NCBI GenBank assembly: GCA_029262675.1 | Contig: JAJCYW010000009.1 | Coordinates: forward strand, 47,198-111,197 | From: Chloroflexota bacterium | GTDB lineage: Bacteria; Chloroflexota; Dehalococcoidia; DSTF01; RBG-16-68-14 | Reading direction: 5' to 3' | Length of the DNA stretch: 64,000 nucleotides | Part shown: positions 32,664 to 56,630 of the stretch, piece after piece | Layout of the letters: each line of letters starts with the position of its first letter | Numbering within the stretch: position 1 is the stretch's first letter | The notes under the pieces: model-generated | Databases searched by the model: none | Told to the model about the DNA's origin: nothing | What the model saw: only the letters and a program-made list of their open reading frames with translations | Translations under genes and position numbers: made by a program

Positions 32664-33941
32664 TCACTTAGCCCCGTCGGTGTCCGTGGCCTCGCCCGAT
32701 AGGTCGGGTTCGTTGGGCCGCCAGCCGCCGCCCTGAGCCTGCTTCTGCGCCTGTTCCATCGTCACCTTCATCGCGGCGGCGGCGCGCTCGTCGCCCTGAA
32801 TCTTCGCCACCACGGCGGCAGTCGCGCCGCTGATGAGGTCCTTCTTGTTCTCCTCGACGAAGTCGGCCGAGGCCTGCAAGCTCCGCGTATAGCCGTTCAG
32901 TTCCGGCGCGACGTAGCGAGCGAAGAGATCCCAAGACCTCAGTGTCGCCTCCCGGTTCGCCCAGTCGTGGACGAAGCCGATTACCACGCCGAAGCCTCCC
33001 GTCACCCCCTGGAGATTGCGAATCGCGGCGACCAGCTCGTCCGGCGTGCCGATGACGGACGCGCCGCCGCCCGCCGCGCCCTGGCCGGCGACCTGGGCCA
33101 GCAGCTCGTCGGGGTCATCGACGTGCGTGGCGCCGGGGCGGCCCAGCACGCGCACGGTGTATTCGTTGTGCCAGCGATGGAGACCCTGCCGCGCCTCGTC
33201 CTCGGCCTGCTTCTTCGACTCGGCAAGGTGCCAGCTCATCAGCACGCGCCAGTCCTTGCGCTCGACCGTTTGGCCGTGCTTCTCGGCCGCCTCTTCGGCG
33301 AACGACCACTGCGTCGGCAGCGCCGTAAGGCCTGCCGTCGACGTCGATGCAATCGATATCACGCCGATGCCGTACTTGCCTGCGATCTGCATCCCGGACG
33401 GTGAAATCGACGACGCGGTGACCGTCGGCATCTCTTCCTGGAGCGGCAGGATTTGCAGCTTGGCGTCGTGCAGTTGGAACCAGTCGCTCTCGTAGCTGAA
33501 GCGCTCTTCGCCGCGCAGCAGCCGAATAATGACGCCCAGCGCTTCGTCCTGCTGGTCGCGCTGGCCCATTGGGTCGATGCCGAGCGTGTGGGCATCGGAC
33601 GGCAACGCGCCGGGCCCAGAGCCGAACATAGCCCGGCCTTTCGTCATGTGATCGAGCTGCGCTATGCGCTGCGCGACGTTGAACGGGTGGTGATATGGCA
33701 ACGAGACGACGCCTGTGCCGAGCATGATGCGCTCGCTGCGCTGGCCCGCGGCGGCGAGAAACATCTCCGGCGACGCGATCATCTCCCAGCCGGAAGAGTG
33801 GTGCTCGCCGCACCAGAACTCGTCGTAGCCGAGCCGGTCCAGGTGCGCGACGAAGTCGAGGTCGCGCTGGAACTGGAGCATCGGGTGTTCGCCGAGCGGG
33901 TGATGTGGCGCCAGAAACGCGCCGAACTTCAGTCTGTTCAT
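32664..33941 (-). CDS. LLM-class (luciferase-like) flavin-dependent oxidoreductase
   Basis: Start at MNRLKFGAF, which has a GGAGGA RBS. FGAFL...HH...LGYDE.W..EHH, the classic LLM N-terminus. C-terminal ~80 aa extension. Confidence 0.75.
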   Translation of the reverse strand: MNRLKFGAFLAPHHPLGEHPMLQFQRDLDFVAHLDRLGYDEFWCGEHHSSGWEMIASPEMFLAAAGQRSERIMLGTGVVSLPYHHPFNVAQRIAQLDHMTKGRAMFGSGPGALPSDAHTLGIDPMGQRDQQDEALGVIIRLLRGEERFSYESDWFQLHDAKLQILPLQEEMPTVTASSISPSGMQIAGKYGIGVISIASTSTAGLTALPTQWSFAEEAAEKHGQTVERKDWRVLMSWHLAESKKQAEDEARQGLHRWHNEYTVRVLGRPGATHVDDPDELLAQVAGQGAAGGGASVIGTPDELVAAIRNLQGVTGGFGVVIGFVHDWANREATLRSWDLFARYVAPELNGYTRSLQASADFVEENKKDLISGATAAVVAKIQGDERAAAAMKVTMEQAQKQAQGGGWRPNEPDLSGEATDTDGAK

Positions 33942-34203
33942 ATCCGTTCCTCCGGGTGAATCATAGCGGCCATGAAGCGTTGCTAATTGGCCGGCGTCGC
34001 ATCGCTGAAACCTAGATCCGAACGCGGGACGCGGTTGGTTGCCGAAGCTTACTTGGCGCCGTATTGGGGCGTCAAGCTGAAAAGCGAATTGCGGCACGGT
34101 GTGGCATACTGGGCCTGAGCCGGTATTGTGCTTGGCATTCACGGGCAACGTGGCCCCGGGCCGGGCTGCTCGTATCATCTAAAGAAGGCTCAACGGAGGC
34201 ATC

Positions 34204-35379
34204 ATGACTACTGAGACACGATATGAAGGCGGGCTTGGCATCGAGCCGGGCAGCGATCCCTACGAATCGTATGAGCGCATGAGGCGGGACGCTCCCGTGA
34301 ACCGTGTGGGCGAGGGCTTCTGGGCCGTCGCCAAGTTTGAGGATGTTAACGCGATCCTCCGCGATTGGCAGACCTTCTCATCGATTGTCGGCGCGAAAGC
34401 GATCTCGGGCGAGGTGCCCGCGAGCGGCATGATATTCAACGACCCGCCAATCCATACGCGACTGCGCGGCATGATCCAGAAGGCGTTCACGCCGCGGGTC
34501 GTCGAGGAGCAGCGCCCGGCGATCCAGGCCTACTGCGATGAGCTTGTGGAGAAGATGCTGGCCGAGGAGGACCCGGACCTGGTCGCCTCGCTGGCGTACC
34601 CGCTGCCGGTTATGGTGATCGCCAACATGCTGGGCGTCGCTGACGGCGACATGGCGGTGTTCAAGCGCTGGTCCGACGTCATCATCCAGAACATTGGCCC
34701 TTCGCTTCTGAACGGGGATGACAGTGGACTTGGCGACACGAACGCTGAGTTCAACGCCTACTTTGGAGAACGGCTTGAAGAGTTGCGTCGCCAGCCCGAC
34801 GACAGCCTTCTGAGCGGGCTCATTCAGGTAGAGACCGAAGAGGGGAAGCTGACGCGGGACGAGCTGCTGATGTTCTGCCGGCTGCTCCTGGTCGCGGGGA
34901 ACGAGACGACGACGGGTCTGATCGTGAACTCAATGCGTGTCTTTTCGGAGTTCCCGGACGCTCTCCAGCAGGTCAAGGAGGACCTCGACCTGATACCTGT
35001 CGCCGTCGAGGAGGCGCTGCGCTACTACGCGCCGTTCCAGGCGACCATCCGCCGGGCGACGAAGGACGTCGAACTGCGCGGCCAGAAGATCGCGAAGGAC
35101 GAACGCATCCTCGTACTCCTCGCGTCGGCCAATCGCGATGAGGAGGCCTTCGAGAACCCAAAGGACTTCCGCCTCGACCGCGGCCGCAATAGGCACGTCG
35201 CGTTCGGCTTCGGCATCCACTCCTGCGTCGGCGCGCCGCTCGCTAGGCTGGAAGGCGGCATCGCGCTGGCCACGCTGCTTCCGAAGATCCGGAGCGTCAC
35301 GCTGCTGGACGATGATGCCGGCGAGATGCTGCTCCCTGGCGGCCCGAACTCACTGAGAGTCCACTTCGAACTCGAGTAG
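34204..35379 (+). CDS. cytochrome P450
   Basis: Heme-binding loop FGFGIHSCVGAPLA, EXXR (EEALRY), and I-helix AGNETT. GGAGG RBS. Confidence 0.9.
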   Translation: MTTETRYEGGLGIEPGSDPYESYERMRRDAPVNRVGEGFWAVAKFEDVNAILRDWQTFSSIVGAKAISGEVPASGMIFNDPPIHTRLRGMIQKAFTPRVVEEQRPAIQAYCDELVEKMLAEEDPDLVASLAYPLPVMVIANMLGVADGDMAVFKRWSDVIIQNIGPSLLNGDDSGLGDTNAEFNAYFGERLEELRRQPDDSLLSGLIQVETEEGKLTRDELLMFCRLLLVAGNETTTGLIVNSMRVFSEFPDALQQVKEDLDLIPVAVEEALRYYAPFQATIRRATKDVELRGQKIAKDERILVLLASANRDEEAFENPKDFRLDRGRNRHVAFGFGIHSCVGAPLARLEGGIALATLLPKIRSVTLLDDDAGEMLLPGGPNSLRVHFELE

Positions 35380-37467: not shown

Positions 37468-38688
37468 ATGAGGAACGTCGCGATAGTCGGCGCCGGAATG
37501 ACGCGTTTCGCGAAGTATCAGGATCGCGGGCTCAAGGAGTTGACGAACGAAGCCGTTAGTGCAGCTCTTGAGTCCGCCGGAGTCGACAAGTCAGGATTTG
37601 AGGTCGCGGTCGTGGGCAACGCCGCCGCCGGGGTGATCACAGGACAGGAGTGCGTCCGCGCGCAGGTCGTTCTGCGCGAGATGGGGATCGACAAGATCCC
37701 GATGGTCAACACGGAGAACGCCTGCGCCAGCTCGTCGACTGCGTTCCAAGTCGCTTGGCTGTATGTCGCGTCCGGCCTCTACGATGTGGCGCTTGCTGTC
37801 GGCGTGGAGAAGATGTTCGTCGATGACAAGCTGAAGACGATGGCGGCCTTCAGCGGCGCTGTCGATGTCGAGCAAATTCGCGAACTCATGAGCAGCCTCA
37901 AGCCGCCTTCGGAGAAGAAGGCTGGCACGGAGAGCGGCGCAGGTACCAAGCGCAGCCTCTTTATGGACATCTATGGCGCCGTCGCGCGTTCCCATATGGA
38001 GCGCTACGGCACGACGAAGGAGCACTACGCGCGCATCGCGGTGAAGAACCACAACAACGGCAGCCTTAACCCGCACGCGCAATACCAGGAGCGCTACACG
38101 CTCGAGGAGATCCTGGCGTCGCCGGCCGTGTCCGAGCCGCTGACGCGTCTCATGTGCTCGCCCATCGGTGATGGTGCGGCTGCCGCGGTCCTGATGAGCG
38201 AGGAGAAGGCCAAACAGTTCACCACCGATCCCGTAATGGTTCGCGGCTCGGCGATCGTATCCGGCGCCGACGACCGTGGGGAGGTCGGCGGCGAAACGGG
38301 TCGCGCGGCACAGCGAGCGTTTGAGATGGCGGGGATGACGCCACGGGACGTCAACGTGATGGAGGTCCATGACGCCACGGCTCCGTCGGAGTTGTTCATC
38401 TATGAGGAGCTGGGTCTCTGTGAAGAGGGTGAGGGAGGCCGGCTGATCGAAGAGGGCGTGACCGAAATCGGCGGGCGTTTGCCTGTCAACACCAGTGGCG
38501 GGTTGCTGGCCAAGGGCCACCCGATCGGAGCGACTGGCATCGCCCAGATCTACGAGATCTGGTTGCAACTTCACGGCAAGGCCGGTGACCGCCAGGTAGC
38601 TGGCGCGAAGGTCGGCTTGACGGAGAACGGCGGTGGAATGATACGCGGCGAGGCCGCCGCGACGGCGGTTCACATTCTGGCCAAGTAA
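37468..38688 (+). CDS. thiolase-family protein of the SCP-x / lipid-transfer-protein type
   Basis: VAIVGAGMTRFAKY N-terminus and NTSGGLLAKGHPIGATG C-terminal motif, typical of SCP2-thiolase-like enzymes rather than biosynthetic thiolases. GGAGGG RBS. Confidence 0.75.
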   Translation: MRNVAIVGAGMTRFAKYQDRGLKELTNEAVSAALESAGVDKSGFEVAVVGNAAAGVITGQECVRAQVVLREMGIDKIPMVNTENACASSSTAFQVAWLYVASGLYDVALAVGVEKMFVDDKLKTMAAFSGAVDVEQIRELMSSLKPPSEKKAGTESGAGTKRSLFMDIYGAVARSHMERYGTTKEHYARIAVKNHNNGSLNPHAQYQERYTLEEILASPAVSEPLTRLMCSPIGDGAAAAVLMSEEKAKQFTTDPVMVRGSAIVSGADDRGEVGGETGRAAQRAFEMAGMTPRDVNVMEVHDATAPSELFIYEELGLCEEGEGGRLIEEGVTEIGGRLPVNTSGGLLAKGHPIGATGIAQIYEIWLQLHGKAGDRQVAGAKVGLTENGGGMIRGEAAATAVHILAK

Positions 38689-38731
38689 CACGGGCCAAGT
38701 AACATCTGCCCAGCGAACAGAGGAGGTTCCA

Positions 38732-39565
38732 ATGGAAGTCATGCAGGTTCTCGGTAACCGGCGGAGCATCCGCTACTATCTGCCACATCGGCCGGTGGAG
38801 CGTGAGAAGGTACAGAAGATGCTGGAGGCCGCCCGGCGTGCTTCTTGCGTGGGGAATGTCACCGTCGCCAGGGCGATCGTCATCTGGAAAGACCAGGCAT
38901 CTGAAGAGGTGATCAAAGCGATCACCCCGCCCCTTGGCTATCAGCAGATGAACACCGCACCCTGCTTCATCCTGTTCTACCACGACAAGCTGTCTTACGA
39001 AGGCAACAAGTGGATCGACGACCTGAAGAACCTAGCAACACAAAGGCGTATCGGCGAAGACCTCGAGCAGACGCACGAGCTCATTGAGAAGTCGCTGCGC
39101 CCGGCGTTTGGCGCCGCCTGGGAGCAGATGGCTGTCGCCCCTCTCGCGTTCATGGACGTCGGTCAGGTTGTAGCGCAAGCCACCTTCGCGGCCTGGGACG
39201 AGGGTCTGGGCACGTGCCTGATGAGCAGTCCGCGTATCGAGCAGATCGGAGGTCTGCTCAATCTGCCGGAGACAGCCATTCCGGTCTGTCTGATGTCGGT
39301 CGGCTACCCAGCGGAGTCCTGGGAAGCGGGCGGCCAGACGAGCCGGCCGCCGCTAGAGGACATCTTCTTTGAGATGGAGTACGGCAAGCCGTTCAAGTCG
39401 GACCCGGCGGTCGTGGAGGAGTTGAAGAAGGACGGCCTGATCCAGACGCCGGCGCCGCTGCCCTGGCGCGAGGCTGAGCTGCAGTACATTGCGCACGCTC
39501 TTAACATGGAGTTCCAGCTCGCGATGCCAGGCGCTCCCCCGGCAAGCGGGGACGGTAAGGAGTGA
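38732..39565 (+). CDS. nitroreductase-family flavoprotein with C-terminal extension; paralog of 283..1071
   Basis: VLGNRRSIRYYLP...KVQKMLEAARRAS. Colinear with the 283 gene, including SVGYPAESW/LVGYPAESP and the extended tail. Confidence 0.7.
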   Translation: MEVMQVLGNRRSIRYYLPHRPVEREKVQKMLEAARRASCVGNVTVARAIVIWKDQASEEVIKAITPPLGYQQMNTAPCFILFYHDKLSYEGNKWIDDLKNLATQRRIGEDLEQTHELIEKSLRPAFGAAWEQMAVAPLAFMDVGQVVAQATFAAWDEGLGTCLMSSPRIEQIGGLLNLPETAIPVCLMSVGYPAESWEAGGQTSRPPLEDIFFEMEYGKPFKSDPAVVEELKKDGLIQTPAPLPWREAELQYIAHALNMEFQLAMPGAPPASGDGKE

Positions 39566-40533
39566 CCGTCGTCGCGGAGGGCACGGGAGCCTTCTTGGCG
39601 CCTGACCCGGACGCCCACCGGCGCTATATCCGCGACCACAAGGAAAAGGGCCTCGTCTCCAAGGTGATGTCCGAGCACGAAGCCATCGAGCGCTTCGTCG
39701 AGGACGGCGACTATGTCGCGTACGACTGCAACCTCTGGGTGCGCGGGCCGGCGGCCCTCATGCGCGAGATCATCCGCCAGAAGAAGCGGGAGTTGTGGAT
39801 CGCGGCCAAGTTCACGGCCCACGACGCGACGATGCTCGTCGCGGCCGGATGCGTGAACCGCATCGACGTTGGCTGGATGGAAGTGGGCCGGGTGATCACG
39901 GAGGCCCAGCTAGAAGGCCGCGTGGAGCTCCACGAATGGAGCAACGGCGCGATGACCTATAGACTGCTTGCTGGCTCCTTGGGCCTGCCGTTTCTGCCGT
40001 TGCGTTACCTGGGCGGTACCGACGTGTTCAATACATCCGGCACAAAGCTGATCGATGACCCGTACAGCGGAAAGCCGATCTGCGTAGTTCCCGCTCTTAA
40101 CCCCGACGTCGGGCTCGTGCACGTCAACCAGTGCGACGAATTCGGTAACGCACGTGTCTTCGGCGCCGGCATCTCGCCGGTCGAAACGGCGATGGCCGCG
40201 AAGAAGGTGATCCTCTCGACTGAGGAGATCATCGACAGCGACGAGCTCCGCAGGCATCCCCAACAGACGAGGATTCCTTACTACGCGGTGGACGCAGTCG
40301 TCCACGCCCCGTTTGGCGGCTACCCAGGCACCGTGCCGGGGCTCTACAAGGCGGACATAGAGCACTTGATGGAGTCGGGCGCGGCCCAGATGCAAGGCAA
40401 GATGGATGAGTACCTGGAGAAGTGGGTGTTCAGCGTTTCGTCACACGAGGAGATGCTGGGGACGCACGTGGGCCAGGAGAAGCTGGACGTGCTGAAGGCG
40501 GAGGAGACGATCAAAGAAGGCTACTACGAATGA
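39562..40533 (+). CDS. CoA-transferase family I, subunit A (GctA/IpdA-like)
   Basis: GTGA overlap with the upstream gene. Subunit-A-like pattern ...AAKFTAHDATMLVAAGCV.... Confidence 0.7.
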   Translation: MTVVAEGTGAFLAPDPDAHRRYIRDHKEKGLVSKVMSEHEAIERFVEDGDYVAYDCNLWVRGPAALMREIIRQKKRELWIAAKFTAHDATMLVAAGCVNRIDVGWMEVGRVITEAQLEGRVELHEWSNGAMTYRLLAGSLGLPFLPLRYLGGTDVFNTSGTKLIDDPYSGKPICVVPALNPDVGLVHVNQCDEFGNARVFGAGISPVETAMAAKKVILSTEEIIDSDELRRHPQQTRIPYYAVDAVVHAPFGGYPGTVPGLYKADIEHLMESGAAQMQGKMDEYLEKWVFSVSSHEEMLGTHVGQEKLDVLKAEETIKEGYYE

Positions 40534-41393
40534 CAGAAACCCGAACGTTCACGGACATGGAACAGATCATCACGACCAGTTCCCGTCTGATGGACGGCGA
40601 CAAGCTGTATTTCACTGCCATCGGAGGGCCGCCTCTGGTTGCGGTCCTGCTCGCGAAGCGCCTGCGCGCCCCGGAGCTGGCCTACATCGTGGAAGACGGG
40701 ACCATCGCCCCGCAGGTCTCGCTGCCAGCGCCACCGTTTCTGATCGCGGCCAGCGGCGCCAGCTATCGCGCCGCGGCGTGGGCGGACATGAACACCGTCA
40801 GCTTCCATGCCGGCCTGGGCTACATCGACTACGGCGTCCTGGCGGCGGTGCAGGTGGACGAGTATGGCAACTTCAACTCGACCTTCGTCGGTCCGGCGTA
40901 CGAAAGGCCGGCGCGCCGCTTCGGCGGCCCCGGCGGCGCGAACGAGATCGCCTCGCTCTGTTGGCGGACGATCTTGATGACGCGCCAGCAGGGACGCAAG
41001 TTCGTCAAGAAGCTGGATTTCATGTCGTCGCCGGGCTTTCTGGACGGCAGCGCCGGCGCCCGCGAACGGGCCGGCCTCCCTGCGGATACCGGGCCCTGGC
41101 GCGTCGTGACGGAGATGGCCGTGTTCGACTTCGACGAGGAGACGCGGCGTATTCGTCTGAAGGCACTGGCACCTTGGGCGACGGTCGACGACGTGATCGC
41201 CGAGATGGAGTTTGAGCCCATGATCGGTCCTTCGCTGGAGAGCATCGAGGTACCCAGCGAGGAGGAGCTATCCGTGCTTCGGGCAGAAGTTGACACGACG
41301 GGCCGGACCGTGCGAGGCTGCTGGATCACGGTCGAACTCGATGGCGAGAATGCACGCCTCGTGGAGCAGGAGACCTCAGCCGAGGGGGCATAG
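40530..41393 (+). CDS. CoA-transferase family I, subunit B (GctB/IpdB-like)
   Basis: ATGA overlap with subunit A. ...YFTAIGGPPLVAVLLAKRL... and ...GGPGGANEIA..., the subunit-B pattern. Confidence 0.65.
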   Translation: MTETRTFTDMEQIITTSSRLMDGDKLYFTAIGGPPLVAVLLAKRLRAPELAYIVEDGTIAPQVSLPAPPFLIAASGASYRAAAWADMNTVSFHAGLGYIDYGVLAAVQVDEYGNFNSTFVGPAYERPARRFGGPGGANEIASLCWRTILMTRQQGRKFVKKLDFMSSPGFLDGSAGARERAGLPADTGPWRVVTEMAVFDFDEETRRIRLKALAPWATVDDVIAEMEFEPMIGPSLESIEVPSEEELSVLRAEVDTTGRTVRGCWITVELDGENARLVEQETSAEGA

Positions 41394-41463
41394 CACAGTG
41401 GCAGAACAGCCAGTCTATCAGGCCCGCGCAGCGCACGGCCCCGGCCGTCGCCGGGCAAGTCGC

Positions 41464-44322
41464 ATGCCCGTTGGCCGGCTTGGCATCTGTTTACTGATCG
41501 CGTTTCTTGGGCTCTGCCTTGGCTCGGCCGGCGTTCCGCTTGCGGCGGTCCCTCTGGCGGGGGCCGCCGCGACGGAGGGCGACGCGCGACCAAGCGAGTC
41601 TTGGACCGCTTACCCTCAGACCGGAGCGCAGCAGGACACCGAATTCGTCATTGTTCGCCAGCGCAACAAGCGGTTCGACCCGCCGGTGGTAGTGATCCAC
41701 GAAGGCGACACCGTCCTCTGGGTCAACGAGACAGCCGGCGGGTGGCACGACGTCCAGAGCTTCGAAGGCGAGTTCTCGTCCGAGCGGATGGATTTCGGTG
41801 ACACGTTCGTCCGCACGTTCGACGAGGCCGGCGTGTTCGGTTACTACTGTACACCTCATGTCGTCGATGGCATGCAAGGCGCCGTGGTAGTGCTGCCTCA
41901 GGACAGGCCGCTGCCCGATCCGCTGCCGACGCCGGCCCTACCCGCGCCTGACTCGCCGCCCACGCCCGACGTGCAAGCAGAAGACGGCCCGCCAGATGCC
42001 ATCGGTACGGTGGCCGGGGGCGGAGGCAATGGAGGCCTGGCCACGGAAGCCAGCCTCTACCTGCCGGAGGGTGTGGCAGTCGATGACGACGGTGCGGTCT
42101 ATGTATCAGACACAGAGAACTGCCAGGTGCGCCGAATCGATCCTGGAGGCAGGGCGGTTGGCGTATTGGGGCATGCGTCCTGCGGGTTCAGCATGGGTGG
42201 AGACGCCGACCTCGGCACCTGGCAACACACGAACTATCCACGGGGTGTGGCGGTCGGGCCGGATGGGCTCCTCTACGTCGCGGATACGATCAACTGCCGC
42301 GTGCGCCGAATCGAGGCGGCGGGGACGGTCATGACAATCGCCGGCCGCGGCTCGTGCCGGGCGAGCGGCGACGGCGGCCCCGCCGTCCATGCCGGCCTCT
42401 CGCCGTGGGGGCTGGGTTGGGACGAGCAGGGGAACCTGTACATCGCGGACGTATTCAACTGTCGCATCCGCAGGCTGGACAGCGAGGGCACGATCACGAC
42501 CGTGGCGGGCAATGGCGACTGCGGCTTCTCCGGCGACGGCGGCACGGCGACGGCAGCGAGCCTGTTCTTCCCTCGGGACGTGGCCGTCGGGCGAGACGGT
42601 GCGATCTTCATCGCGGACGCGGAGAACTGTCGCGTGAGGCGAATCGACCCGGCCACCGGCGTTATTGAGACCGTGGCCGGAGCGACCGTGGCCGGAGGTG
42701 AGTCCTGCGACGACGGTGGTGATGGCGAGGCGGCCGAAGCGGCCAGTCTCCAGCCATGGGCGCTCGCCGCTGAGCCGGGTGGCGCTGTGCTGGTGGCGGA
42801 CCGGGCCCACTGCCGCGTTCGCCGCTTCGTCCCCGGCGGCATCATCGAGACGGTCGCCGGAACCGGCCGCTGCGGCTACTCAGGCGACGGCGGCGACGCG
42901 ATCGACGCGGCGCTGCGCCAGCCATCGGACATCGCACTCGCGCCTGACGGCGTTCTCTACGTCGCCGATACAGGGAACTGCCGTATCCGGCGAATAGAGA
43001 CGAGCGGCACGATCACCACCATAGCCGGCGGCGGGGCCTGCGCGCCCGGAGGTGACGGCGGCTGGGCCGTTAGCGCCAGCGCTTGGCATCCCATGGGGCT
43101 GGCGATGGGCGAAGGCGGCGAATGGTACTTTTCCGAACTGGATACCTGCCGGGTGCGGCGTGTGGACGCCAACGGCATCATCTCGACGTATGCGGGCAAC
43201 GGGCTCTGTGGCTACGCCGGCGACGGCGGAGCCGCCGTCGACGCGAGGCTCAGCGACATGCTGGGCGGGCTGGCGTTGGCCGAAGACGGGACGCTCTACA
43301 TCGCTGAGGGCTACAACTGCCGCGTGCGAAGTGTCACTACCCGCGGGCTGATACATACTGTTGCCGGCAACGGCAGGTGCGAGTTCTCCGGCGACGGCGG
43401 TCCGGCGCGGGAGGCCGCCCTCAATTTCGTCGCCGATGTAGAGCCGGACGGAAGCGGAGGCCTCCTGATAGCGGAGCCGTTCAACTGTCGCGTGCGACGG
43501 GTCGACCTAGCGACTGGCATCATCGACACGGTTGTTGGTGACGGCTCATGTCATTTCAATGGGGAGGGCGTCCCGGCCGGGCAGGCTGGCGTGGAGCCGT
43601 GGGCAGTGGCCGCGGGCCCGGATGGCTCGATCTTCTTGGCCGACTCGGGTAACTGCCGGGTCAGGAGCGTCAACGCGGATGGGCTGATCGCCACGGTGGC
43701 AGGCGGAGATGAATGCGGCATTGGTGGCGACGGCGGACCCGCGCTCCAGGCACAGTTCTTGTTGCCCTACGATCTCGCACTGGATCAGGCCGGCAACCTC
43801 TACGTCGCGGATCTACGGGCGTTCACCGTGCGGAAGGTGGATGCGCAGGGTGTCATCAGCACGGTCGCTGGTATCGGCATCTCCCGCCCAATCGATATCG
43901 GCGGCTATGATCCACTGAACGGGCTGCTCTGCTCGATCCACGCCCTTCCGGTGCCGGTACCCTCGTATCTGGGCGACGGTGGTCCCGCGAAAGAGGCCGG
44001 GCTCTACTTCCCATACGGGATCGCGCTGGATACCGAAGGGCATCTCTATATTGCCGATACGTTTGACCATCGAGTGCGTCGCGTGGCCTGCGGTGGCGTC
44101 GTGCCCTGCGCGGATTCCGCGGCGTTGGTCGATACGCCAAGCGACGCGTCAGACGATGAGACGCCGCCCGTGGCGCTGCCGGAGACTGGGCAGGCCGCCC
44201 AGCAGCCGTATGGCGGGGTCTCGCTGGCCGGTCTGGCTGCCTTGCTTAGCGCTTCGCTGGTGCTGTTGGCGGCCCTGGTGGGCCTCCGCAGGCGGGGGGC
44301 CAGTCGAAAACGGCCGTACTAG
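41464..44322 (+). CDS. cell-wall-anchored protein: signal peptide, type-1-copper cupredoxin domain, 12 NHL repeats (two 6-bladed propellers), LPETG sortase signal
   Basis: MPVGRLGICLLIAFLGLCLGSAG (signal). Cupredoxin ligands H...C-x2-H-x4-M (GGWHDV ... YYCTPHVVDGM). Twelve repeats of (Y/F)(V/I)AD..NC(R/Q)(V/I)RR(I/V)D. C-terminal LPETG, then a hydrophobic stretch, then RRRGASRKRPY. Confidence 0.75.
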   Translation: MPVGRLGICLLIAFLGLCLGSAGVPLAAVPLAGAAATEGDARPSESWTAYPQTGAQQDTEFVIVRQRNKRFDPPVVVIHEGDTVLWVNETAGGWHDVQSFEGEFSSERMDFGDTFVRTFDEAGVFGYYCTPHVVDGMQGAVVVLPQDRPLPDPLPTPALPAPDSPPTPDVQAEDGPPDAIGTVAGGGGNGGLATEASLYLPEGVAVDDDGAVYVSDTENCQVRRIDPGGRAVGVLGHASCGFSMGGDADLGTWQHTNYPRGVAVGPDGLLYVADTINCRVRRIEAAGTVMTIAGRGSCRASGDGGPAVHAGLSPWGLGWDEQGNLYIADVFNCRIRRLDSEGTITTVAGNGDCGFSGDGGTATAASLFFPRDVAVGRDGAIFIADAENCRVRRIDPATGVIETVAGATVAGGESCDDGGDGEAAEAASLQPWALAAEPGGAVLVADRAHCRVRRFVPGGIIETVAGTGRCGYSGDGGDAIDAALRQPSDIALAPDGVLYVADTGNCRIRRIETSGTITTIAGGGACAPGGDGGWAVSASAWHPMGLAMGEGGEWYFSELDTCRVRRVDANGIISTYAGNGLCGYAGDGGAAVDARLSDMLGGLALAEDGTLYIAEGYNCRVRSVTTRGLIHTVAGNGRCEFSGDGGPAREAALNFVADVEPDGSGGLLIAEPFNCRVRRVDLATGIIDTVVGDGSCHFNGEGVPAGQAGVEPWAVAAGPDGSIFLADSGNCRVRSVNADGLIATVAGGDECGIGGDGGPALQAQFLLPYDLALDQAGNLYVADLRAFTVRKVDAQGVISTVAGIGISRPIDIGGYDPLNGLLCSIHALPVPVPSYLGDGGPAKEAGLYFPYGIALDTEGHLYIADTFDHRVRRVACGGVVPCADSAALVDTPSDASDDETPPVALPETGQAAQQPYGGVSLAGLAALLSASLVLLAALVGLRRRGASRKRPY

Positions 44323-45919: not shown

Positions 45920-46543
45920 ATGAACGGGAAACGAGTATACTTCGGTGCCGCTGGGGCGTTGTCTTTTCTGCTGATATTGGTGTTGTTCGCCGCTGCCTGC
46001 GGCGGCGGTGACGAAGAGGCGGATCCGACGGCTACGGCGCCAGCAGGAGGGGATCCGACTGCCACGAAAACCACACTGGGCGAGCCGACAGACCCGCCTG
46101 CGGATCCGACAGACCCGCCTGCGGATCCGACAGACGCGCCCGCGGAGCCGACAGATGTGCCTGCGGACCCGACAGTTGTGCCTACGGTGCCAGTGATTTC
46201 GGATACGACGGTCGATGTGACGTTGACGGAGTTCGTTCTCGATCCGTCCGCCAACGCGGCGCCTGCTGGAATCGTTAGGTTCAACGTGAGCAGCGACGGT
46301 GCAATTTTCCACAACCTCAAGGTTATTGAGACGGACCTCGCTCCCAACGCACTGCCGACCGACGATACCATATTCTCGGTGGACGAGGAGCAAGTGGACG
46401 TCGTTGCCACTACGGCAGACCTTAATCCCGGCGAGCAGGAAACGCTCAGCGTCGAATTGGCTGCCGGCAGCTACGTGCTCATCTGCAACGTTCCAGGGGG
46501 ACATTACCAAGGGGGTATGACGGCAGCATTCACCGTCGAATAG
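45920..46543 (+). CDS. cupredoxin-domain lipoprotein with Pro/Asp/Thr tandem repeats
   Basis: Lipobox LFAAACGGG. Repeats PTDPPADPTDPPADPTDAPAEPTDVPADPT encoded by 24-bp tandem DNA repeats (~46078-46170). Type-1 copper ligands FHN ... C-x5-H-x4-M (LICNVPGGHYQGGM). Confidence 0.65.
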   Translation: MNGKRVYFGAAGALSFLLILVLFAAACGGGDEEADPTATAPAGGDPTATKTTLGEPTDPPADPTDPPADPTDAPAEPTDVPADPTVVPTVPVISDTTVDVTLTEFVLDPSANAAPAGIVRFNVSSDGAIFHNLKVIETDLAPNALPTDDTIFSVDEEQVDVVATTADLNPGEQETLSVELAAGSYVLICNVPGGHYQGGMTAAFTVE

Positions 46544-47143: not shown

Positions 47144-47174
47144 TTCGGCCCGACCGGCTAGAGGGAGGCGGAAC

Positions 47175-48689
47175 ATGCATTACGATGTCATCGTCGTCGG
47201 CGCCGGAGCGTCCGGGGCGGTTACAGCCGCCCGCGTCTCGGAAGACGCGGCGCGCTCGGTGCTGCTGCTGGATGCCGGCCCGTACTATCGAACCGCATCG
47301 CAGACGCCCGCCGACCTGCTGAACGGCAACGACAACTCCTATTTCGCCCATGATTGGGGATACGAGGTAACGGCGAACGTCGCCGGTCGGGTCGTGCCGC
47401 TGCCGGCCGGGCGCGTCGTCGGCGGTTCTTCCGCCGTGAACACGGCCATCGCCCTGAGGGGGACGCCTGAGGACTACGATGGCTGGGCAGCGCTCGGCAA
47501 CGACGAGTGGTCATGGGATAAGGTGCTGCCGTATTTCCGCCGCCTGGAGCACGATCTCGATTTCGACGACGATAACCACGGCCAAGACGGGCCTATCCCC
47601 GTGCGCCGTCATACAGAGGACGAGCTGGTGCCCGTGCAGGCGGCCTTCGTCCGGGCTATGCGGGCGCTTGGCTACGCGGAAACGTCCGACAACAACGATC
47701 CGCAGTCGACGGGGCTCGGCTTTCATCCGATGAACAAGCTGGACGGCCGCAGGATGAGCGTCGCCATCTGCTACCTAGAGCCGGCGCGAAAGCGGCCAAA
47801 TCTCACCATCATGGGAGACTGCCACGTCCGGCGGATCGTCTTCGACGGCGATCAGGCGACAGGCCTTGAAGTGGAGGGCGACGCCGGCATGGAGACGATT
47901 ACGGGCGATCGCATCGTGATCTCCTGCGGCGCCATTGGTACGCCTGCGCTTCTCATGCGCTCCGGCATCGGGCCTGCGGACCACCTGCGCGAACTCGACA
48001 TTGACGTGGTGCGGGACCTGCCGGGTGTTGGTGACAACCTGGACGACCATCCGATGCTCGGCGCGACGTTCATTGCCAAGGAGGGGATGCTAGAGAGATC
48101 CGACCCTGTTGTGCAGGTCACGTATCGATACACGTCGAGCGATGACGAAGAGCGAAACGACATGCAACTCATGCCGGTTTCCCAGATCCCAACGCGCTCA
48201 GGCGGCTTCGTCTACGCAATCGGAAGCGTCATCTACCTCCAGAAGTCTAGAGGGCGGCTCACGCTGACGTCGGCGGACCCCCGCATCCCACCGCACGTCG
48301 ACGAGCGCTTCCTCGAAGCTGACGAGGACGTCCGGCGCCTGGTGGAAGGCCTGCGCATGGCATTGGACGTGGGCTCTCATCCAGCGTTCGATGAGCTGTC
48401 AGAAGGCCTGAGATTTCCCGACGCGGCGGTCGTGCTGGATGACGATGCGCTGGCGGAGTGGTGCAAGAGGGTTGCGTCGAGCGGCTTCCATCCGAGCTGC
48501 ACGGCGATGATGGCGCCCGCGGACGATCCCATGGGGGTTGTCGACCAGCACCTGCGAGTGCGCGGGATCGATGGTCTGCTCGTGGCCGATGCCTCGGTGA
48601 TGCCAAGGTGCCCGCGAGCCAATATCCACCTCACGTCCGTGATGATCGGTGAACGCGCCGGCGAGTGGCTGCGCGAGGGTGTCGTCTAG
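47175..48689 (+). CDS. GMC-family FAD oxidoreductase (choline dehydrogenase / cholesterol oxidase superfamily)
   Basis: Start at MHYDVIVVGAGASG with a GAGGGAGG RBS. GMC N-terminal ADP-binding fold, internal ...GGSSAVN..., and the C-terminal His/Asn active-site region. Confidence 0.8.
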   Translation: MHYDVIVVGAGASGAVTAARVSEDAARSVLLLDAGPYYRTASQTPADLLNGNDNSYFAHDWGYEVTANVAGRVVPLPAGRVVGGSSAVNTAIALRGTPEDYDGWAALGNDEWSWDKVLPYFRRLEHDLDFDDDNHGQDGPIPVRRHTEDELVPVQAAFVRAMRALGYAETSDNNDPQSTGLGFHPMNKLDGRRMSVAICYLEPARKRPNLTIMGDCHVRRIVFDGDQATGLEVEGDAGMETITGDRIVISCGAIGTPALLMRSGIGPADHLRELDIDVVRDLPGVGDNLDDHPMLGATFIAKEGMLERSDPVVQVTYRYTSSDDEERNDMQLMPVSQIPTRSGGFVYAIGSVIYLQKSRGRLTLTSADPRIPPHVDERFLEADEDVRRLVEGLRMALDVGSHPAFDELSEGLRFPDAAVVLDDDALAEWCKRVASSGFHPSCTAMMAPADDPMGVVDQHLRVRGIDGLLVADASVMPRCPRANIHLTSVMIGERAGEWLREGVV

Positions 48690-52697: not shown

Positions 52698-53168
52698 ATG
52701 GCCGAGATCTACACCACCGCCTGGTACGACAGCATGAAGGATCTCCTCAACAAGAGCGATGAGGTCACGAAGAACGCACCGCAGGGTGTCTGGCGCATCC
52801 TGGCGGAGATTCGCGGCGATGGCACATCACCCTACATCGGCGGCGATGATGTCAAACGCTTCTCGATAGTGCTCGACGATGGCAAATGCGCGAGCTACCA
52901 GGAGCTGACAGAGGCGCCGCCGCGGAAGGACTTCGAATTCATCCTGGAGATGCCCGCCGGCCTCTTCGAGCGTATCGTCGCCAACCAGGCAGATCCGCTT
53001 GAGGCCGGGCTAAAGGGTGACGTGAAGATCGTCGGCGACATGCGGGTGCTGATCCAGAACGCGGAGCTAGTGAACGTCCTCTCTGAGATCTACCAGCGCG
53101 AGATCGAAACGGAGTGGCCTAACGGTACCCCTCCGTACGAGGCAGCGACTGCTGGAGGTGCGGCATGA
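52698..53168 (+). CDS. SCP2-domain protein
   Basis: AAGGAG RBS. ...FSIVLDDGKCASYQELTE...FEFILEMPAGLFERIVANQADPLEAGLKGDVKIVGDMRVLIQNAELVNVL is an SCP2 fold signature. Confidence 0.55.
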   Translation: MAEIYTTAWYDSMKDLLNKSDEVTKNAPQGVWRILAEIRGDGTSPYIGGDDVKRFSIVLDDGKCASYQELTEAPPRKDFEFILEMPAGLFERIVANQADPLEAGLKGDVKIVGDMRVLIQNAELVNVLSEIYQREIETEWPNGTPPYEAATAGGAA

Positions 53169-55945
53169 CCGAAGCAGGCCTATTGCTACACGCCCTCGCC
53201 GAAAAGAAGGGAGGCGGCAGCGAATCCTATGGCTCCTGGGAGGATCTGTATCGCGGGAAATGGACGTGGGACCGCGTCGTCAAAGGTACGTGCAACCGGG
53301 CTGACTGCATCGCAGCTTGCTCGTTGGACCTGTTCGTTAAGGACGGCATCGTGTGGCGAGAAGAGCAGAACGCCATCTACGACCAGACCAACGAGGCGGT
53401 GCCAGACTTCAACCCACGTGGCTGCCAGAAGGGCATCTGCTACAGCGACCTGATGTACGATGCGTCTCGCATCAAGTACCCGCTGCGAAGAGTTGGCGAG
53501 CGTGGCTCCGGAAAGTGGGAGCGCATCTCATGGGATGAGGCGCTAACGGAGATCTCCGACAAGGTCCTTGATGTCTGCAAGGAGGATGGCCCGGAGAGCA
53601 TCATCTACGACTTCGGCACAACGAACATCGACTTCGGACCTGGAACGCCCGCCGAGCAGCAACTGACCCGCCTGATCGGCACGACGTCGCTCGATGAGTG
53701 GGCCGGCGTGGGCGACCTTCCCATGGGCGCCATCCAGACCTGGGGCCTCTTCAACGCTGATGGGACCTCCGACGATTGGTTCAACGCCGATACGATCTTG
53801 GTCTGGCTGGGCAATCCCGTCTACACGCGGGTGCCGGACGTGCACTTTATGTTCGAGGCGCGCTACAAGGGCGCCGAAGTGGTAACGATCGCGCCTGATT
53901 ACAACGCCACCGTGGTGCATTCCGACCTCTGGGTGAACCCGCGCGTCGGAACGGACGCCGCTCTGGCGCTTGCGATGTGCAACGTGATCGTGGAGGAGGG
54001 GCTGCAGAAGGATCGCTACGTGCAGGAACAGACCGACCTGCCGTTCCTGGTACGCGAAGACGCCGGCCGCTTCCTCCGCCAATCCGACATCGCCAAGGAT
54101 GGCAAGGATGACGTTTTTTACGTCTGGGATCTAGCCACCAAATCGCTACAAGAAGCGCCAGGGACGATGGGACAGCCGGATGCGTCGCTCGACCTGGGTG
54201 ACCTCGACCCCGCGATGGAGGGCGATTTCGAGGTAGAGCTGCTGGACGGCAGGAAGGTGACCGTACGACCCGCCTTCCTGGCGCTCAAGAAACGTTTGGA
54301 CGAATACACGCCGGAGCGCGCCGCAGAGATCACAGGCGTCGCCGCCAGCACGATCCGGCGTTTGGCCCGACGGGTAGCTGAGAGTCCCGCCACGCTGATT
54401 TTCTGCTCGTGGGGGGCCTGCAAGCACTACCACATGGACCTCGTGCAGCGATCCATCATCCTGCTGCTCGCGCTCACCGGCAACACGGGTAAGCGCGGCG
54501 CCGGTATGCGCATCGGCGCTTGGTGGAACATGTCGCTCAGCTACGACAAGGCTGGCGTCGGCGCACTTGCGGCGGCCGGCGCCCCAGCAGAGCGGCCCAA
54601 GGTCCGCGACCTTGAGAACTTGATGAAGACGCTGATGAAGGCAAACTCGTCGATCAGCCCGACGATGCCGTTCCTCTATAAGCACGACAAGGGCTACGCG
54701 AAGCTGGTCGACACGCCCGGCTATCACGACCCCGATCTGAAGCGCCCCATTAGCGAGTACATGCAGGAGGCGTTCGATAAGGACTGGATGCCTGTCTATC
54801 CCAGGGACGGCAAGTCGCCGCGGGTCTTCCTCTACACGGGTATGAACCCGCTGCGCCGCTGGCCGGCCCCCGATGCCATTCGCGAGAATCTGTGGGCGAA
54901 TTTCGAGTTGATCGTGACATGGGATTTCCGCATGTCCAGCTCCGGCATGTACTCGGACATCATCCTGCCCGCGGCAGGATGGCACGAGAAGTCCGGCGTC
55001 AAGTTCACCCAGAGCTATGTGCCGTACATCTGTGTTGGTGAGCAGGCCGTGGAGCCGCTCTACGAGTCAAAGAACGAGTTCGACATCATGGCCAAGCTGG
55101 CGGCTACGCTGGAGCGGCGGGCCAAAGAGCGGGAAGAAGCCCCGTACAAGGATGTGTTCGGTAACGAGCACGATCCAACAGACATCGCCCGCCTCTGGAG
55201 CTTGGACGGTGAGTTCGGCGAGGGAGACGCGGAAAAGGCGCTGGACGTCCAATTCGAGCTCTCAGATCCGGTTGGAGATGCTACGTGGGCGGAGGCGGCT
55301 GAGAAGGGGGCGGTGCGCGTGACGTCGACGGGAGGCTATGGGCCGATCACCGCCATCACGAATGAAGTTGAGGAAGGTGAGACGCTCTACCCGTTCGCGT
55401 GGTTTGTCAGGGACAAGGAGTCTTGGCCCACGCTCACCGGACGCCAGCAGTTCTACATCGACCATCCGTGGTTCCTAGAGGCCGGCGAAGAGTTGCCCAC
55501 GCACAAGGAGGCCCCTCCCGCTGGCGGCGATTACCCGCTGCGGATGACAGGTGGACATACGCGTTGGAGCATCCACGCTATCTGGAGGAGCAATCGCACG
55601 CTCCTTCGACTCCAACGCGGCGAGCCCGTGATGTACATCAGCACGCAGGACGCGGCGGCGCGCGGCCTGGATGACCATGACCTGGCCTTGGTCCACAACG
55701 ATGTAGGCGGGTTCAAGGTGAGAGTGAAGCTGGCGCCCAGTGTTCAGCCGGGCCAGGTGGTCATGTATCACGCCTGGGAGCCGTACCAGTTCGAGCAGTG
55801 GTCGGGCCAGCAGGCTGTTAACCCATCGCCGCTGAAGCCCCTCCACCTAGTGGGGGACTACGTCCAGCTTTCGTATCGGTTTGCCCTGGCCCAACCCAGC
55901 AACATTTCTCGGGCGATGACGGTCGAACTGACAAAGGTGGAGTGA
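53165..55945 (+). CDS. molybdopterin (bis-MGD) oxidoreductase alpha subunit, type II DMSO-reductase family (NarG/EbdA/C25DH-like), paralog 1; no Tat signal
   Basis: N-terminal ...WTWDRVVKGTCNRADCIAACSLDLFVKDGIVWREEQ...NPRGCQKGICYSDLMY..RIKYPLRRVGERGSGKWERISWDEAL parallels the NarG FS0-cluster/N-domain. No RR motif. 926 aa. ATGA overlap with the SCP2 gene. Confidence 0.8.
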   Translation: MTEAGLLLHALAEKKGGGSESYGSWEDLYRGKWTWDRVVKGTCNRADCIAACSLDLFVKDGIVWREEQNAIYDQTNEAVPDFNPRGCQKGICYSDLMYDASRIKYPLRRVGERGSGKWERISWDEALTEISDKVLDVCKEDGPESIIYDFGTTNIDFGPGTPAEQQLTRLIGTTSLDEWAGVGDLPMGAIQTWGLFNADGTSDDWFNADTILVWLGNPVYTRVPDVHFMFEARYKGAEVVTIAPDYNATVVHSDLWVNPRVGTDAALALAMCNVIVEEGLQKDRYVQEQTDLPFLVREDAGRFLRQSDIAKDGKDDVFYVWDLATKSLQEAPGTMGQPDASLDLGDLDPAMEGDFEVELLDGRKVTVRPAFLALKKRLDEYTPERAAEITGVAASTIRRLARRVAESPATLIFCSWGACKHYHMDLVQRSIILLLALTGNTGKRGAGMRIGAWWNMSLSYDKAGVGALAAAGAPAERPKVRDLENLMKTLMKANSSISPTMPFLYKHDKGYAKLVDTPGYHDPDLKRPISEYMQEAFDKDWMPVYPRDGKSPRVFLYTGMNPLRRWPAPDAIRENLWANFELIVTWDFRMSSSGMYSDIILPAAGWHEKSGVKFTQSYVPYICVGEQAVEPLYESKNEFDIMAKLAATLERRAKEREEAPYKDVFGNEHDPTDIARLWSLDGEFGEGDAEKALDVQFELSDPVGDATWAEAAEKGAVRVTSTGGYGPITAITNEVEEGETLYPFAWFVRDKESWPTLTGRQQFYIDHPWFLEAGEELPTHKEAPPAGGDYPLRMTGGHTRWSIHAIWRSNRTLLRLQRGEPVMYISTQDAAARGLDDHDLALVHNDVGGFKVRVKLAPSVQPGQVVMYHAWEPYQFEQWSGQQAVNPSPLKPLHLVGDYVQLSYRFALAQPSNISRAMTVELTKVE

Positions 55946-55961
55946 GAAGCGAGGTGCAGTC

Positions 55962-56612
55962 ATGCGCGTAGGTCGAGTTGATACAAGAGATGAGGAGCTG
56001 CTGAGCCCTGAGTCGACGGCCTGGCAGGAAGCCGCCGTCAATGAGGTTGTGTTGTCGCCGACACCCCTCGAGTTGCAGCCTACCGATTACATTCGCGTTT
56101 CCCGAAACGGCCGTCCGTACGGCGCGGTTTCGAGCATGAGGGTGAGCGCCCTGCACAACGGCGACAGTGTGTTCTTCCACTTGGTTTGGCAGGATGACTC
56201 TGAAGATCGGGCGATCAAGGACATCAACCAGTTCGTGGATGGCGCCGCCGTGATGTTCCCGATAGTCGAGGATGCGCCGCTCATTGGCATGGGAATCCAA
56301 GGCAAGCCAGTGAACGTATGGATGTGGCGCGCCGACTGGGAACGGCCGAAGAACGTCGCTGCGGAAGGGATGGGGACGACTCAGCGCCGGGACGACCCGG
56401 CACTTTCGTCCGCGGTGCGTCATGCCGATGGGAATTGGGATCTGATCGTTGGCAGATCGCTCGAAGAAAGAGACGCCCCTCCGGGGACGATCGCACTGGC
56501 GCCCGGAGCGGCGTCGAAGATCGGATTCGCAGTCTGGCAGGGTTCCGAACAGGAGCGAGCCGGTCTGAAGGCATTCTCTCCCGCCTGGCAAGATCTAGAG
56601 CTTGATGCGTAG
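55962..56612 (+). CDS. EbdC/DdhC-like heme-b gamma subunit (EB_dh domain), without signal peptide
   Basis: GAGGTG RBS. ...MRVSALHNGDSVFFHLVWQDDSEDRAIKDINQFVDGAAVMFP...GKPVNVWMWRADWE matches the ethylbenzene-dehydrogenase gamma-subunit fold pattern. N-terminus is hydrophilic. Confidence 0.6.
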   Translation: MRVGRVDTRDEELLSPESTAWQEAAVNEVVLSPTPLELQPTDYIRVSRNGRPYGAVSSMRVSALHNGDSVFFHLVWQDDSEDRAIKDINQFVDGAAVMFPIVEDAPLIGMGIQGKPVNVWMWRADWERPKNVAAEGMGTTQRRDDPALSSAVRHADGNWDLIVGRSLEERDAPPGTIALAPGAASKIGFAVWQGSEQERAGLKAFSPAWQDLELDA

Positions 56613-56630
56613 CGGAAAGTAGGGCTCGCC

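Follow-up and report, generated by a model that had tools for sequence, protein, structure and literature searches.

The gene analysed here lies on the forward strand of a 64,000-nucleotide stretch of Chloroflexota DNA (the window) and encodes an undescribed fusion protein, in which a tethered blue copper domain is joined to two cysteine-paired NHL propellers and an LPxTG-type anchor. This fusion is confined to a clade of Chloroflexota. Its parts follow one another as signal peptide, copper domain, proline-rich linker, 12 NHL blades, and an LPETG motif with a transmembrane (TM) helix and an arginine-rich tail. The whole architecture is shared by approximately 25–30 proteins of 870–990 amino acids (aa) with 59–80% identity. 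The named members are proteins of "Chloroflexi/Chloroflexota bacterium" metagenome-assembled genomes (MAGs) and are annotated as hypothetical or, by the Joint Genome Institute (JGI), as "plastocyanin/sugar lactone lactonase YvrE". When species-representative genomes were scanned with a profile of the cupredoxin and the linker, six loci were returned, all of them in Chloroflexota or Dehalococcoidia MAGs. A literature search found no paper describing a cupredoxin–double-NHL architecture. A preliminary description of this DNA, made from its letters, had not recognised the architecture from characterised proteins; the family is indeed uncharacterised, but some 25–30 database proteins share its layout. 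Tentatively, we favour the reading that the protein is a surface-tethered blue-copper relay for molybdenum (Mo) enzymes of the same gene island that are exported by twin-arginine translocation (Tat), with the propellers as a docking scaffold.

The features of the gene are as follows.

41398–44322, forward strand: the whole gene from its probable true start, GTG 41398; 974 aa
41464–41574, forward strand: predicted N-terminal signal/anchor with a basic n-region, a hydrophobic helix (aa 4–21) and an alanine-rich end, AGAAA (sequence, model, orthologue N-termini)
41635–41913, forward strand: plastocyanin/halocyanin-like type-1 copper (cupredoxin) domain (Pfam, NCBIfam, model, conservation)
41746–41748, 41848–41850, 41857–41859 and 41872–41874, forward strand: putative copper ligands H95, C129, H132 and M137
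41908–41997, forward strand: linker with an invariant P-L-P-D-P-L-P, followed by a variable, low-confidence stretch rich in Pro, Ala and Ser (alignment, model)
41998–43053, forward strand: NHL propeller 1, blades 1–6 (profiles, motif, model, fold match)
43054–44118, forward strand: NHL propeller 2, blades 7–12 (motif, alignment, model)
44176–44319, forward strand: sorting/anchor signal with LPETG (44176–44190, aa 905–909), an 11-aa spacer, a TM helix (aa 921–941) and the tail RRRGASRKRPY (sequence, model, alignment)

The open reading frame (ORF) first read at 41464–44322 on the forward strand is open and yields a product of 952 aa, whose numbering is kept for all residues. ATG 41464 is an internal methionine of the gene, and GTG 41398 is probably the true start. 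The start was moved there because a GAGGGGG Shine-Dalgarno sequence stands 8 nt upstream, the stop codon of CoA-transferase B lies only 4 nt before it, the NCBI protein P0001 (974 aa, 100% identical) begins at this codon, and the additional 22 N-terminal residues are conserved in the nearest orthologues, P0002–P0004. A comparison of orthologue N-termini revealed no conserved twin-arginine motif or lipobox in either possible N-terminus of the protein; therefore, its export is regarded as Sec-type, and Tat export or lipidation was rejected. The signal peptide, the approximately 25 cysteines in regular pairs and the C-terminal anchor place the predicted protein outside the membrane, which agrees with the extracytoplasmic location proposed earlier.

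The copper domain matched Copper-bind (PF00127) at aa 70–143 with 37.3 bits against a cutoff of 21.2 in a Pfam scan. The top NCBIfam copper match was the halocyanin domain, which stayed under its cutoff (54 vs 94), as did plastocyanin (34 vs 88). By its profile scores, the domain is a member of the PF00127 family, but of no named NCBIfam subtype. The AlphaFold2 (AF2) model of the isolated domain has a predicted local distance difference test (pLDDT) value of 95.3 and forms a Greek-key beta-sandwich, which fits the Synechococcus plastocyanin 1bxu with template modelling (TM) scores of 0.82/0.84 and a root-mean-square deviation (rmsd) of 1.9 Å in Foldseek. The next fold matches are other plastocyanins, amicyanins and pseudoazurins, and all the nearest folds are dedicated electron carriers. 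The ligand loop C129-T-P-H132-V-V-D-G-M137 matches the plastocyanin Cys-x2-His-x4-Met column for column. H95 stands within W-H-D-V, the equivalent of plastocyanin P-H-N-V, where the HMMER alignment is off by one residue. H95, C129, H132 and M137 are invariant in 24 of 24 orthologues, and also in a 27-sequence alignment that includes distant multi-cupredoxin homologues. The type-1 copper domain with a full H/C/H/M set, as claimed in the preliminary description, is thus borne out by a profile above its cutoff and by invariant ligands, and structure prediction, which had been proposed as a check, also supported the cupredoxin fold. The fold and the invariant H/C/H/M set suggest that the domain binds copper.

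An exhaustive search with the domain alone gave 7,760 relatives. Outside the family, the closest of them are tandem multi-cupredoxin proteins with 32–50% identity and not other NHL fusions, whereas the matches at 66–80% identity are the same fusion or its fragments. A cupredoxin-only word search likewise yielded only fragments of the family. P0121–P0123 were considered as short stand-alone cupredoxins and were rejected, being frameshifted fragments of the cupredoxin-NHL fusion. An alternative role for such a domain is surface copper handling, in which the protein would bind or buffer copper for CopI-like resistance or for delivery to cuproenzymes, without electron transfer. Some cupredoxin-fold proteins (CopI, the EfeO N-domain) do serve metal homeostasis, and a small cupredoxin encoded close to the target gives weak CopI/EfeO matches. 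However, the best matches of the target itself are electron carriers rather than CopI, cop/cus genes appear in none of the genomic contexts, the window included, and the C-x2-H-x4-M loop is typical of electron-transfer sites. Copper handling is very improbable for these reasons.

The region behind the linker matched the Pfam families NHL (PF01436, 190 bits in eight stretches) and TEN_NHL (235 bits). An N-C-R-V-R-R motif marks 12 blades, at aa 219, 277, 332, 388, 449, 505, 561, 618, 674, 730, 786 and 868. The full-length model has a mean pLDDT of 78 and a predicted TM score (pTM) of 0.72, with both propeller regions mostly above 85. Its confidence is low in the signal region, in the linker at aa 155–171 (pLDDT below 50, behind the invariant residues L150, P151, L154 and P155) and in two insertions at aa 241–253 and 809–834. 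Segments of approximately 350 aa fit the six-bladed NHL domains of SOQ1 (7djj) and NHLRC2 (6g7w) with a TMt of 0.80 and an rmsd of 2.7–3.7 Å (2.7 Å for NHLRC2). Therefore, the 12 blades are divided into 6+6, that is, two propellers, a split that rests on this fold match. The 12 NHL repeats and the double propeller of the preliminary description stand accordingly. A recent duplication of a six-blade unit was rejected, as no period-6 similarity was found among the 12 blades. The highest sequence score for the NHL region came from teneurin and teneurin-like NHL domains (9pt5, 9ifo, 6fb3; 2e-75). The target lacks YD shell, toxin and EGF parts, and the likeness is limited to the blades; a teneurin-like or YD-repeat toxin was rejected, because nothing but NHL blades matched and the 952 aa hold no other such domains.

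Ten blades each contain one invariant cysteine pair, in which N-C-R-V-R-R is followed after about 20 residues by G-x-G-x-C-G (for example C220/C240). Blades 11 and 12 have no such pair, and C876 and C882 stand at the C-terminal end of propeller 2. Strand C begins with the first cysteine, the second comes right after strand D, and the paired residues sit on neighbouring antiparallel strands on the same face. One disulfide staple per blade is plausible from these positions. The cysteine pair sets the family apart, whose members have a median of 9 motifs and 25 cysteines, compared with medians of 0 and 5 in other NHL homologues. P0081, a protein of 1073 aa with CarboxypepD_reg and NHL domains and no cupredoxin, has 9 per-blade Cys motifs and 26 cysteines; outside the family, no other full-length NHL homologue has this cysteine pair in its blades.

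The propellers also carry invariant residues outside the repeats. Blade 1 has a family-specific insertion with H237, D249, W253 and H255, the insertion between blades 11 and 12 holds R808, P809, D811, G813, G814, D816, P817 and C823, and blade-specific aromatics (W315, W432, W541-H542 and W713) follow a conserved proline. Their conservation points to a specific partner or ligand. They are also a point in favour of the view that the protein is a fused redox enzyme, in which one or both propellers would hold a catalytic or cofactor site and oxidise an extracellular substrate, such as the hydrophobic compound that the island degrades, so that electrons would pass internally to the type-1 copper and then to the respiratory chain. 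Possible analogues are methylamine dehydrogenase, a propeller that works with amicyanin, and propeller dehydrogenases with pyrroloquinoline quinone (PQQ) that are fused to cytochrome domains. The copper domain has amicyanin among its nearest matches in both sequence and fold, and the propeller-enzyme profiles SGL (43.5 bits, cutoff 26.3) and Vgb_lyase (60.1, cutoff 50) were passed, although in partial, repeat-like stretches that generic blade similarity explains. GSDH remained under its cutoff (23.9 vs 25), and the NCBIfam enzyme models fell far below theirs (ScyF 96 vs 350, VgbA 20 vs 600). The blades are highly regular, like those of binding propellers, and no cofactor-biosynthesis genes are associated with the family. 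The idea that the radical SAM pair that neighbours the target in several loci matures a cofactor or a peptide for the propeller (PQQ-like) was rejected, because its members are AhbC/AhbD-like and make haem b. A fused enzyme is therefore regarded as rather unlikely.

The C-terminus has the tripartite layout of a sorting signal, namely LPXTG, a hydrophobic helix of 21 aa and a basic end. In the family, conservation is high at the LPxTG columns (L 20/24, P 23/24, T 20/24, G 21/24), whereas no residue exceeds 9/24 in the variable linker columns that flank them; therefore, the motif itself is taken to be under selection. An LPxTG-type motif is present in 18 of the 24 members (17 with L-P-x-T-G and one with L-S-E-T-G), 42–69 residues from the C-terminus. 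The other six lack it and keep the TM helix and the arginine-rich tail. The spacer between motif and helix is 8–15 aa in the family, which is longer than in classical sorting signals. Curated LPXTG profiles (Pfam Gram_pos_anchor, NCBIfam) gave no match with the whole protein (E≤1) or with the isolated 70-aa tail (E≤0.01), a weak negative, as short profiles are easily lost by the HMMER filters. The LPETG sorting signal reported earlier was thus supported by its tripartite form and its conserved columns but not by a curated profile. Neither a sortase (TLxTC motif, phmmer and Pfam) nor a second LPxTG-type substrate was found in the 64-kb window or the fetched loci, 361 kb in total. As judged from the signal, the C-terminus would anchor the protein in the membrane or, given a sortase, serve for linkage to the wall.

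The genomic setting of the target was compared in 16 independent contexts, namely the window and the orthologue loci L001, L003–L012 and L016–L019. In all 16 of them, the target lies within an island of enzymes of the type II dimethyl sulfoxide (DMSO) reductase family. An exported Mo enzyme of this type, with a Tat signal, occurs nearby in seven contexts (the window, L003, L017, L004, L006, L008 and L010). Two kinds of exported enzyme were found, which are given here together with the cytoplasmic cluster of the window and the haem genes that accompany the target in six loci.

62524–64000, forward strand: Mo alpha subunit like that of ethylbenzene dehydrogenase (EBDH), with a Tat signal (TRRRFLQGVSAGAAALYL, then a conserved QLGC), running off the end of the window; candidate extracytoplasmic partner
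L010 14454–20723, L006 10678–17144, L008 8591–12770 and L004 3–2954: loci of a periplasmic-type nitrite oxidoreductase (NXR) in Chloroflexota MAGs
53165–62330, forward strand: EBDH-like type II DMSO-reductase-family cluster with alpha1, EB_dh gamma (haem b), Fer4_11 beta, NarJ-like delta, MobB/FmdE and alpha2; cytoplasmic, none of them with an export signal
L003 20526–22838, L006 7811–10224, L008 5575–7967, L010 2874–5305, L011 12782–13494 and L016 5360–7794: radical SAM pair AhbC-like/AhbD-like (siroheme-dependent haem b)

The EBDH-like alpha subunits with a Tat signal are approximately 997 aa long, have the motifs SRRGFLK, SRRAFLK or TRRRFLQ, and contain a conserved Q-L-G-C directly after the Tat hydrophobic region, by which they may be Tat-exported lipoproteins. 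The alpha subunit of the window, which the program-made ORF list missed because the gene is cut off, is 79% identical to that of L003 (Mo997), which passes the NCBIfam DMSO_red_II_alp cutoff. In L003 (13197–16190), this gene lies directly downstream of the target (+0.5 kb), and in L017 (8232–11225) it is 5 kb away; in both loci, it is followed by genes for a large membrane protein of the major facilitator superfamily (MFS) type and a CN-hydrolase. No signal-bearing short gamma subunit was seen beside the EBDH-like alphas with a Tat signal. The NXR-like alpha subunits (1154–1221 aa) have the Tat signal SRRAFLKL, match Kuenenia NxrA (7b04) over the full length with 1784 bits, and are encoded alongside a beta subunit, a NarJ-like protein and an EB_dh gamma that is long and TM-anchored. 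They lie 1.5–4.3 kb from the target in L004, L006, L008 and L010. The radical SAM pair scored 573 bits (AhbC) and 454 bits (AhbD-like, above the cutoff) and would fit a local haem b supply to EB_dh gamma in an island of haem-b Mo enzymes.

Together with these data, it can be proposed, tentatively, that the target works as a copper relay for the exported Mo enzymes. The protein would leave the cell through a Sec-type signal and would be kept at the cell surface by the C-terminal LPxTG, TM and arginine-tail signal. One functional type-1 copper centre would shuttle single electrons outside the cytoplasmic membrane, and its likeliest partners would be the Tat-exported EBDH-like hydroxylase and/or the Kuenenia-type NXR of the same island. 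The copper domain would accept electrons from water-dependent hydroxylation or from nitrite oxidation, or would donate them for nitrate reduction, and would thereby link the exported Mo enzymes to the membrane respiratory chain, a role that cytochrome c or free cupredoxins have in other bacteria. The two propellers, probably disulfide-stapled, would be a rigid platform for docking and spacing that places the copper domain beside its partner. Several known systems agree with this proposal. The Kuenenia nxr cluster contains several blue copper proteins, which were noted for their high potentials (PMC11791136), and the route of electron transfer from NXR to its partners is still open (PMC8387239). 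Steroid C25 dehydrogenase (S25DH) and EBDH enzymes are periplasmic, carry a Tat signal and were assayed with artificial acceptors (PMC6016249). Arsenite oxidase, also of the DMSO reductase (DMSOR) family, uses azurin, as in the NCBIfam name "arsenate reductase (azurin)". Clusters for surface electron transfer repeatedly contain NHL-repeat proteins, which were proposed as organisers, for example UetH/I with the cupredoxin UetF in Tenderia, and in Dethiobacter. The best propeller fold matches, SOQ1 and NHLRC2, also have an N-terminal redox domain, which counts for the relay.

A more specific form of this proposal is that the target is the dedicated electron-exit subunit of the Tat-exported EBDH-like hydroxylases and/or NXR in monoderm-type Chloroflexota. 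It would then take over, with copper, the function of the haem-b gamma subunit or of cytochrome c, and docking of the alpha-beta complex, and perhaps of a hydrophobic substrate, at the surface would fall to the propellers. This form is doubtful. If it were true, insoluble substrates would be hydroxylated outside the cell without oxygen, and the product would be imported via the adjacent MFS transporter.

Several points weigh against a relay for exported enzymes. Its main weakness is that cytoplasmic alpha-beta pairs are the genes most tightly linked to the target. In seven loci (L001, L003, L006, L008, L012, L018 and L019), beta, EBDH-like alpha and target follow one another in this order on one strand, which counts for a tie to type II Mo enzymes, but in none of these seven does the alpha subunit directly upstream of the target have a Tat signal. 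No exported Mo enzyme was seen in nine of the 16 contexts, although many of these are short contigs that end within a few kb of the target. The exported candidates belong to two different enzyme kinds, EBDH-like and NXR-like. The partnership itself is suggested by gene neighbourhood only, and physical contact with a Mo enzyme is presumed. In addition, the propeller insertions with His and Asp (H237, D249 and H255; R808–C823) could form a catalytic or ligand site rather than part of a passive scaffold, and the auracyanin-like carrier encoded next door to the target in the window could be the real relay.

Copper-based extracellular electron transfer (EET) is another explanation for a copper centre at the surface. 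Here, the centre would exchange electrons with minerals, humics or partner cells, and the propellers would hold it in place. In diderms as well as monoderms, EET clusters combine surface cytochromes with NHL proteins, the target has a wall or membrane anchor and a long tether, and the MAGs come from sediments and the subsurface. However, a single copper centre cannot span the cell wall, multihaem cytochromes were seen in 0 of the 16 contexts, and cupredoxin-based EET is without experimental precedent, which leaves this explanation highly improbable.

The genes next to the target in the window are as follows.

37468–41393, forward strand: SCP-x-type thiolase, nitroreductase, and CoA-transferase A and B, tightly spaced and upstream of the target (Pfam, synteny); cytoplasmic
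45920–46543, forward strand: second blue copper protein; this lipoprotein carries an auracyanin-like type-1 copper domain (FHN...CNVPGGHYQGGM) on a Pro/Thr/Asp-rich tether

The target is the last gene of the same-strand run thiolase–nitroreductase–CoA-transferase A/B, no terminator-like site was found from within this run to the target, and it is probably in the same operon. An acyl-CoA dehydrogenase (ACAD) gene converges on it from the opposite strand. The order thiolase, nitroreductase, CoA-transferases, target, ACAD recurs in L004, L005, L007, L009 and L010. In these loci, the neighbours are 86–93% identical, but the target only 65–77%; therefore, the target is thought to evolve faster than its cytoplasmic neighbours, as expected of a surface protein.

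This fast evolution agrees with the relay reading and is also one of the points in favour of an envelope or adhesion protein, in which the double propeller would be a structural or ligand-binding surface module for substrate capture or particle attachment and the cupredoxin would be accessory or structural. The link to the Mo island would then reflect co-regulation for growth on insoluble substrates rather than electron transfer. Most NHL propellers mediate interactions, the propeller part has thousands of look-alikes among large NHL surface proteins, Gmet_0556 of Geobacter has been discussed as an adhesion factor, and the window also encodes FG-GAP surface proteins. Such a role leaves two facts unexplained, namely the invariance of the four copper ligands and the ligand loop across the family, and the confinement of the fusion to redox-enzyme islands. 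It is therefore considered possible but unlikely.

Three large FG-GAP-repeat proteins are encoded at 18739–20511, 22325–26095 and 27150–29351 of the window. Their genes are interleaved with those of an ATP-binding cassette (ABC) exporter and a sulfotransferase (20454–22328 and 26150–27172), in what looks like a separate surface-protein cluster. One of these proteins has a dockerin-like segment and ends in a C-terminal hydrophobic helix and a basic tail, without LPxTG.

The second cupredoxin lipoprotein, at 45920–46543, was noted in the preliminary description and was confirmed by an LFAAAC lipobox, PTDPPADPTD repeats and a C-terminal type-1 copper domain that matches 6kol (4e-5) and auracyanin B 1ov8 (7e-4) across the Cys-His-Met loop. 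Only sub-threshold matches were obtained for it in Pfam and NCBIfam, and its orthologue was found only in L010. Downstream of it, the window also encodes a glucose-methanol-choline (GMC) oxidoreductase, two CrtO/CrtI-like flavoenzymes and two SCP2 proteins. The GMC oxidoreductase (47172–48689, forward strand) passes the NCBIfam model MftG, a mycofactocin dehydrogenase, with 395 vs 387 bits. Its longest ORF starts at 46983, and this 63-codon N-terminal extension looks non-coding. The window showed no further mycofactocin genes.

The preliminary description had suggested that the protein relays electrons for the adjacent oxidoreductases. Signal and Tat peptides are absent, even from the longest possible ORFs, in ACAD, the MftG-like GMC enzyme, the CrtO/CrtI-like pair, the nitroreductase, both EBDH-like alpha subunits (which start at 53165 for alpha1 and 59499 for alpha2) and the EB_dh gamma. 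Therefore, these enzymes are considered cytoplasmic, and direct electron exchange between them and an exported cupredoxin is impossible. The adjacent flavoenzymes and the cytoplasmic EBDH-like enzymes were rejected as direct partners for this reason, and the relay idea was kept for the Tat-exported Mo enzymes of the island.

The cytoplasmic cluster has some features of its own. At 53165–58357, a full EBDH-like alpha-gamma-beta-delta set is encoded without an export signal on the alpha or the haem-b gamma subunit, and it seems to represent a cytoplasmic form of enzymes that have been described as periplasmic. The alpha subunit at 59499–62330 ends in a very basic tail rich in Lys, Arg, Ala and Thr, as in EBDH-like alphas without a Tat signal (for example KSKRKAKAGAKRVAAKRK). 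Alternatively, a conserved separate ORF of 43–47 aa (MFAEPLILPKE...KKPKRAAKKKA...) follows the alpha gene without a Tat signal, just before the cupredoxin-NHL gene. The basic tail or the small ORF is found at 59499–62330 in the window, L001 9826–9957, L018 8550–8693, L017 417–554, L019 6938–9964 and L008 3–1718. At the upstream edge of the catabolic cluster (32664–35379), the window encodes a luciferase-like monooxygenase and a cytochrome P450, and genes of these kinds also occur close to the target in L011; the window thus encodes oxygen-dependent hydroxylases next to oxygen-independent (Mo) ones. A 464-aa membrane protein at 6677–8071 on the forward strand has sub-threshold COX1 (33.8 vs 34.8 bits) and NnrS similarity.

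Plastocyanin, amicyanin and halocyanin (PF00127) resemble the target in fold (TM score of 0.82 to 1bxu), in the H...C-x2-H-x4-M ligands and in a location outside the cytoplasm. However, they are proteins of about 100 aa, free or with a simple tether, whereas the copper domain of the target is the N-terminal 10% of a 950-aa protein that also has two propellers and an LPxTG-type anchor. The auracyanins share with it the phylum, an extracytoplasmic tethered type-1 copper site and a Pro/Ala/Thr-rich tether. In contrast, the target domain is plastocyanin/halocyanin-like rather than azurin/auracyanin-like, and the protein is anchored C-terminally through its propeller body, while auracyanins are held by an N-terminal lipid or TM tether. 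SOQ1 and NHLRC2 also combine an N-terminal redox domain with a six-bladed NHL propeller, and SOQ1 resides in a non-cytoplasmic compartment, but their redox domain is thioredoxin-like (thiol instead of copper), and they have one propeller, no per-blade cysteine pairs and no sorting signal.

The NHL proteins of EET clusters (UetH/UetI of Tenderia with the cupredoxin UetF, Gmet_0556, and those of Desulfovibrio ferrophilus and Dethiobacter) are, like the target, genetically coupled to extracytoplasmic electron transfer. In these clusters, the NHL proteins and the carriers are separate polypeptides, the latter mostly multihaem cytochromes, whereas the target has a single fused type-1 copper site and no cytochromes c nearby. 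The blue copper proteins of the Kuenenia nxr cluster and the azurin of arsenite oxidase (Aio) are cupredoxins that go with extracytoplasmic Mo enzymes of the DMSO reductase family at high potential, as proposed for the target. They are small and free, and their partnership is documented (Aio) or proposed (NXR), whereas that of the target comes from its gene neighbourhood.

The physiological electron acceptors of hydroxylases of the EBDH and steroid-C25-dehydrogenase type and of periplasmic-type NXR are poorly defined, and the target is a concrete, testable candidate. The finding would gain weight if the protein turned out to be the electron-exit partner that is still missing for exported EBDH-like or NXR enzymes. 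The family is a copper example of a recurring pairing between NHL propellers and extracytoplasmic electron transfer, and it offers a highly regular propeller with one cysteine pair per blade that is probably disulfide-stapled. Even if the link to these partners is wrong, the family would still represent a well-defined new domain architecture in abundant subsurface bacteria.

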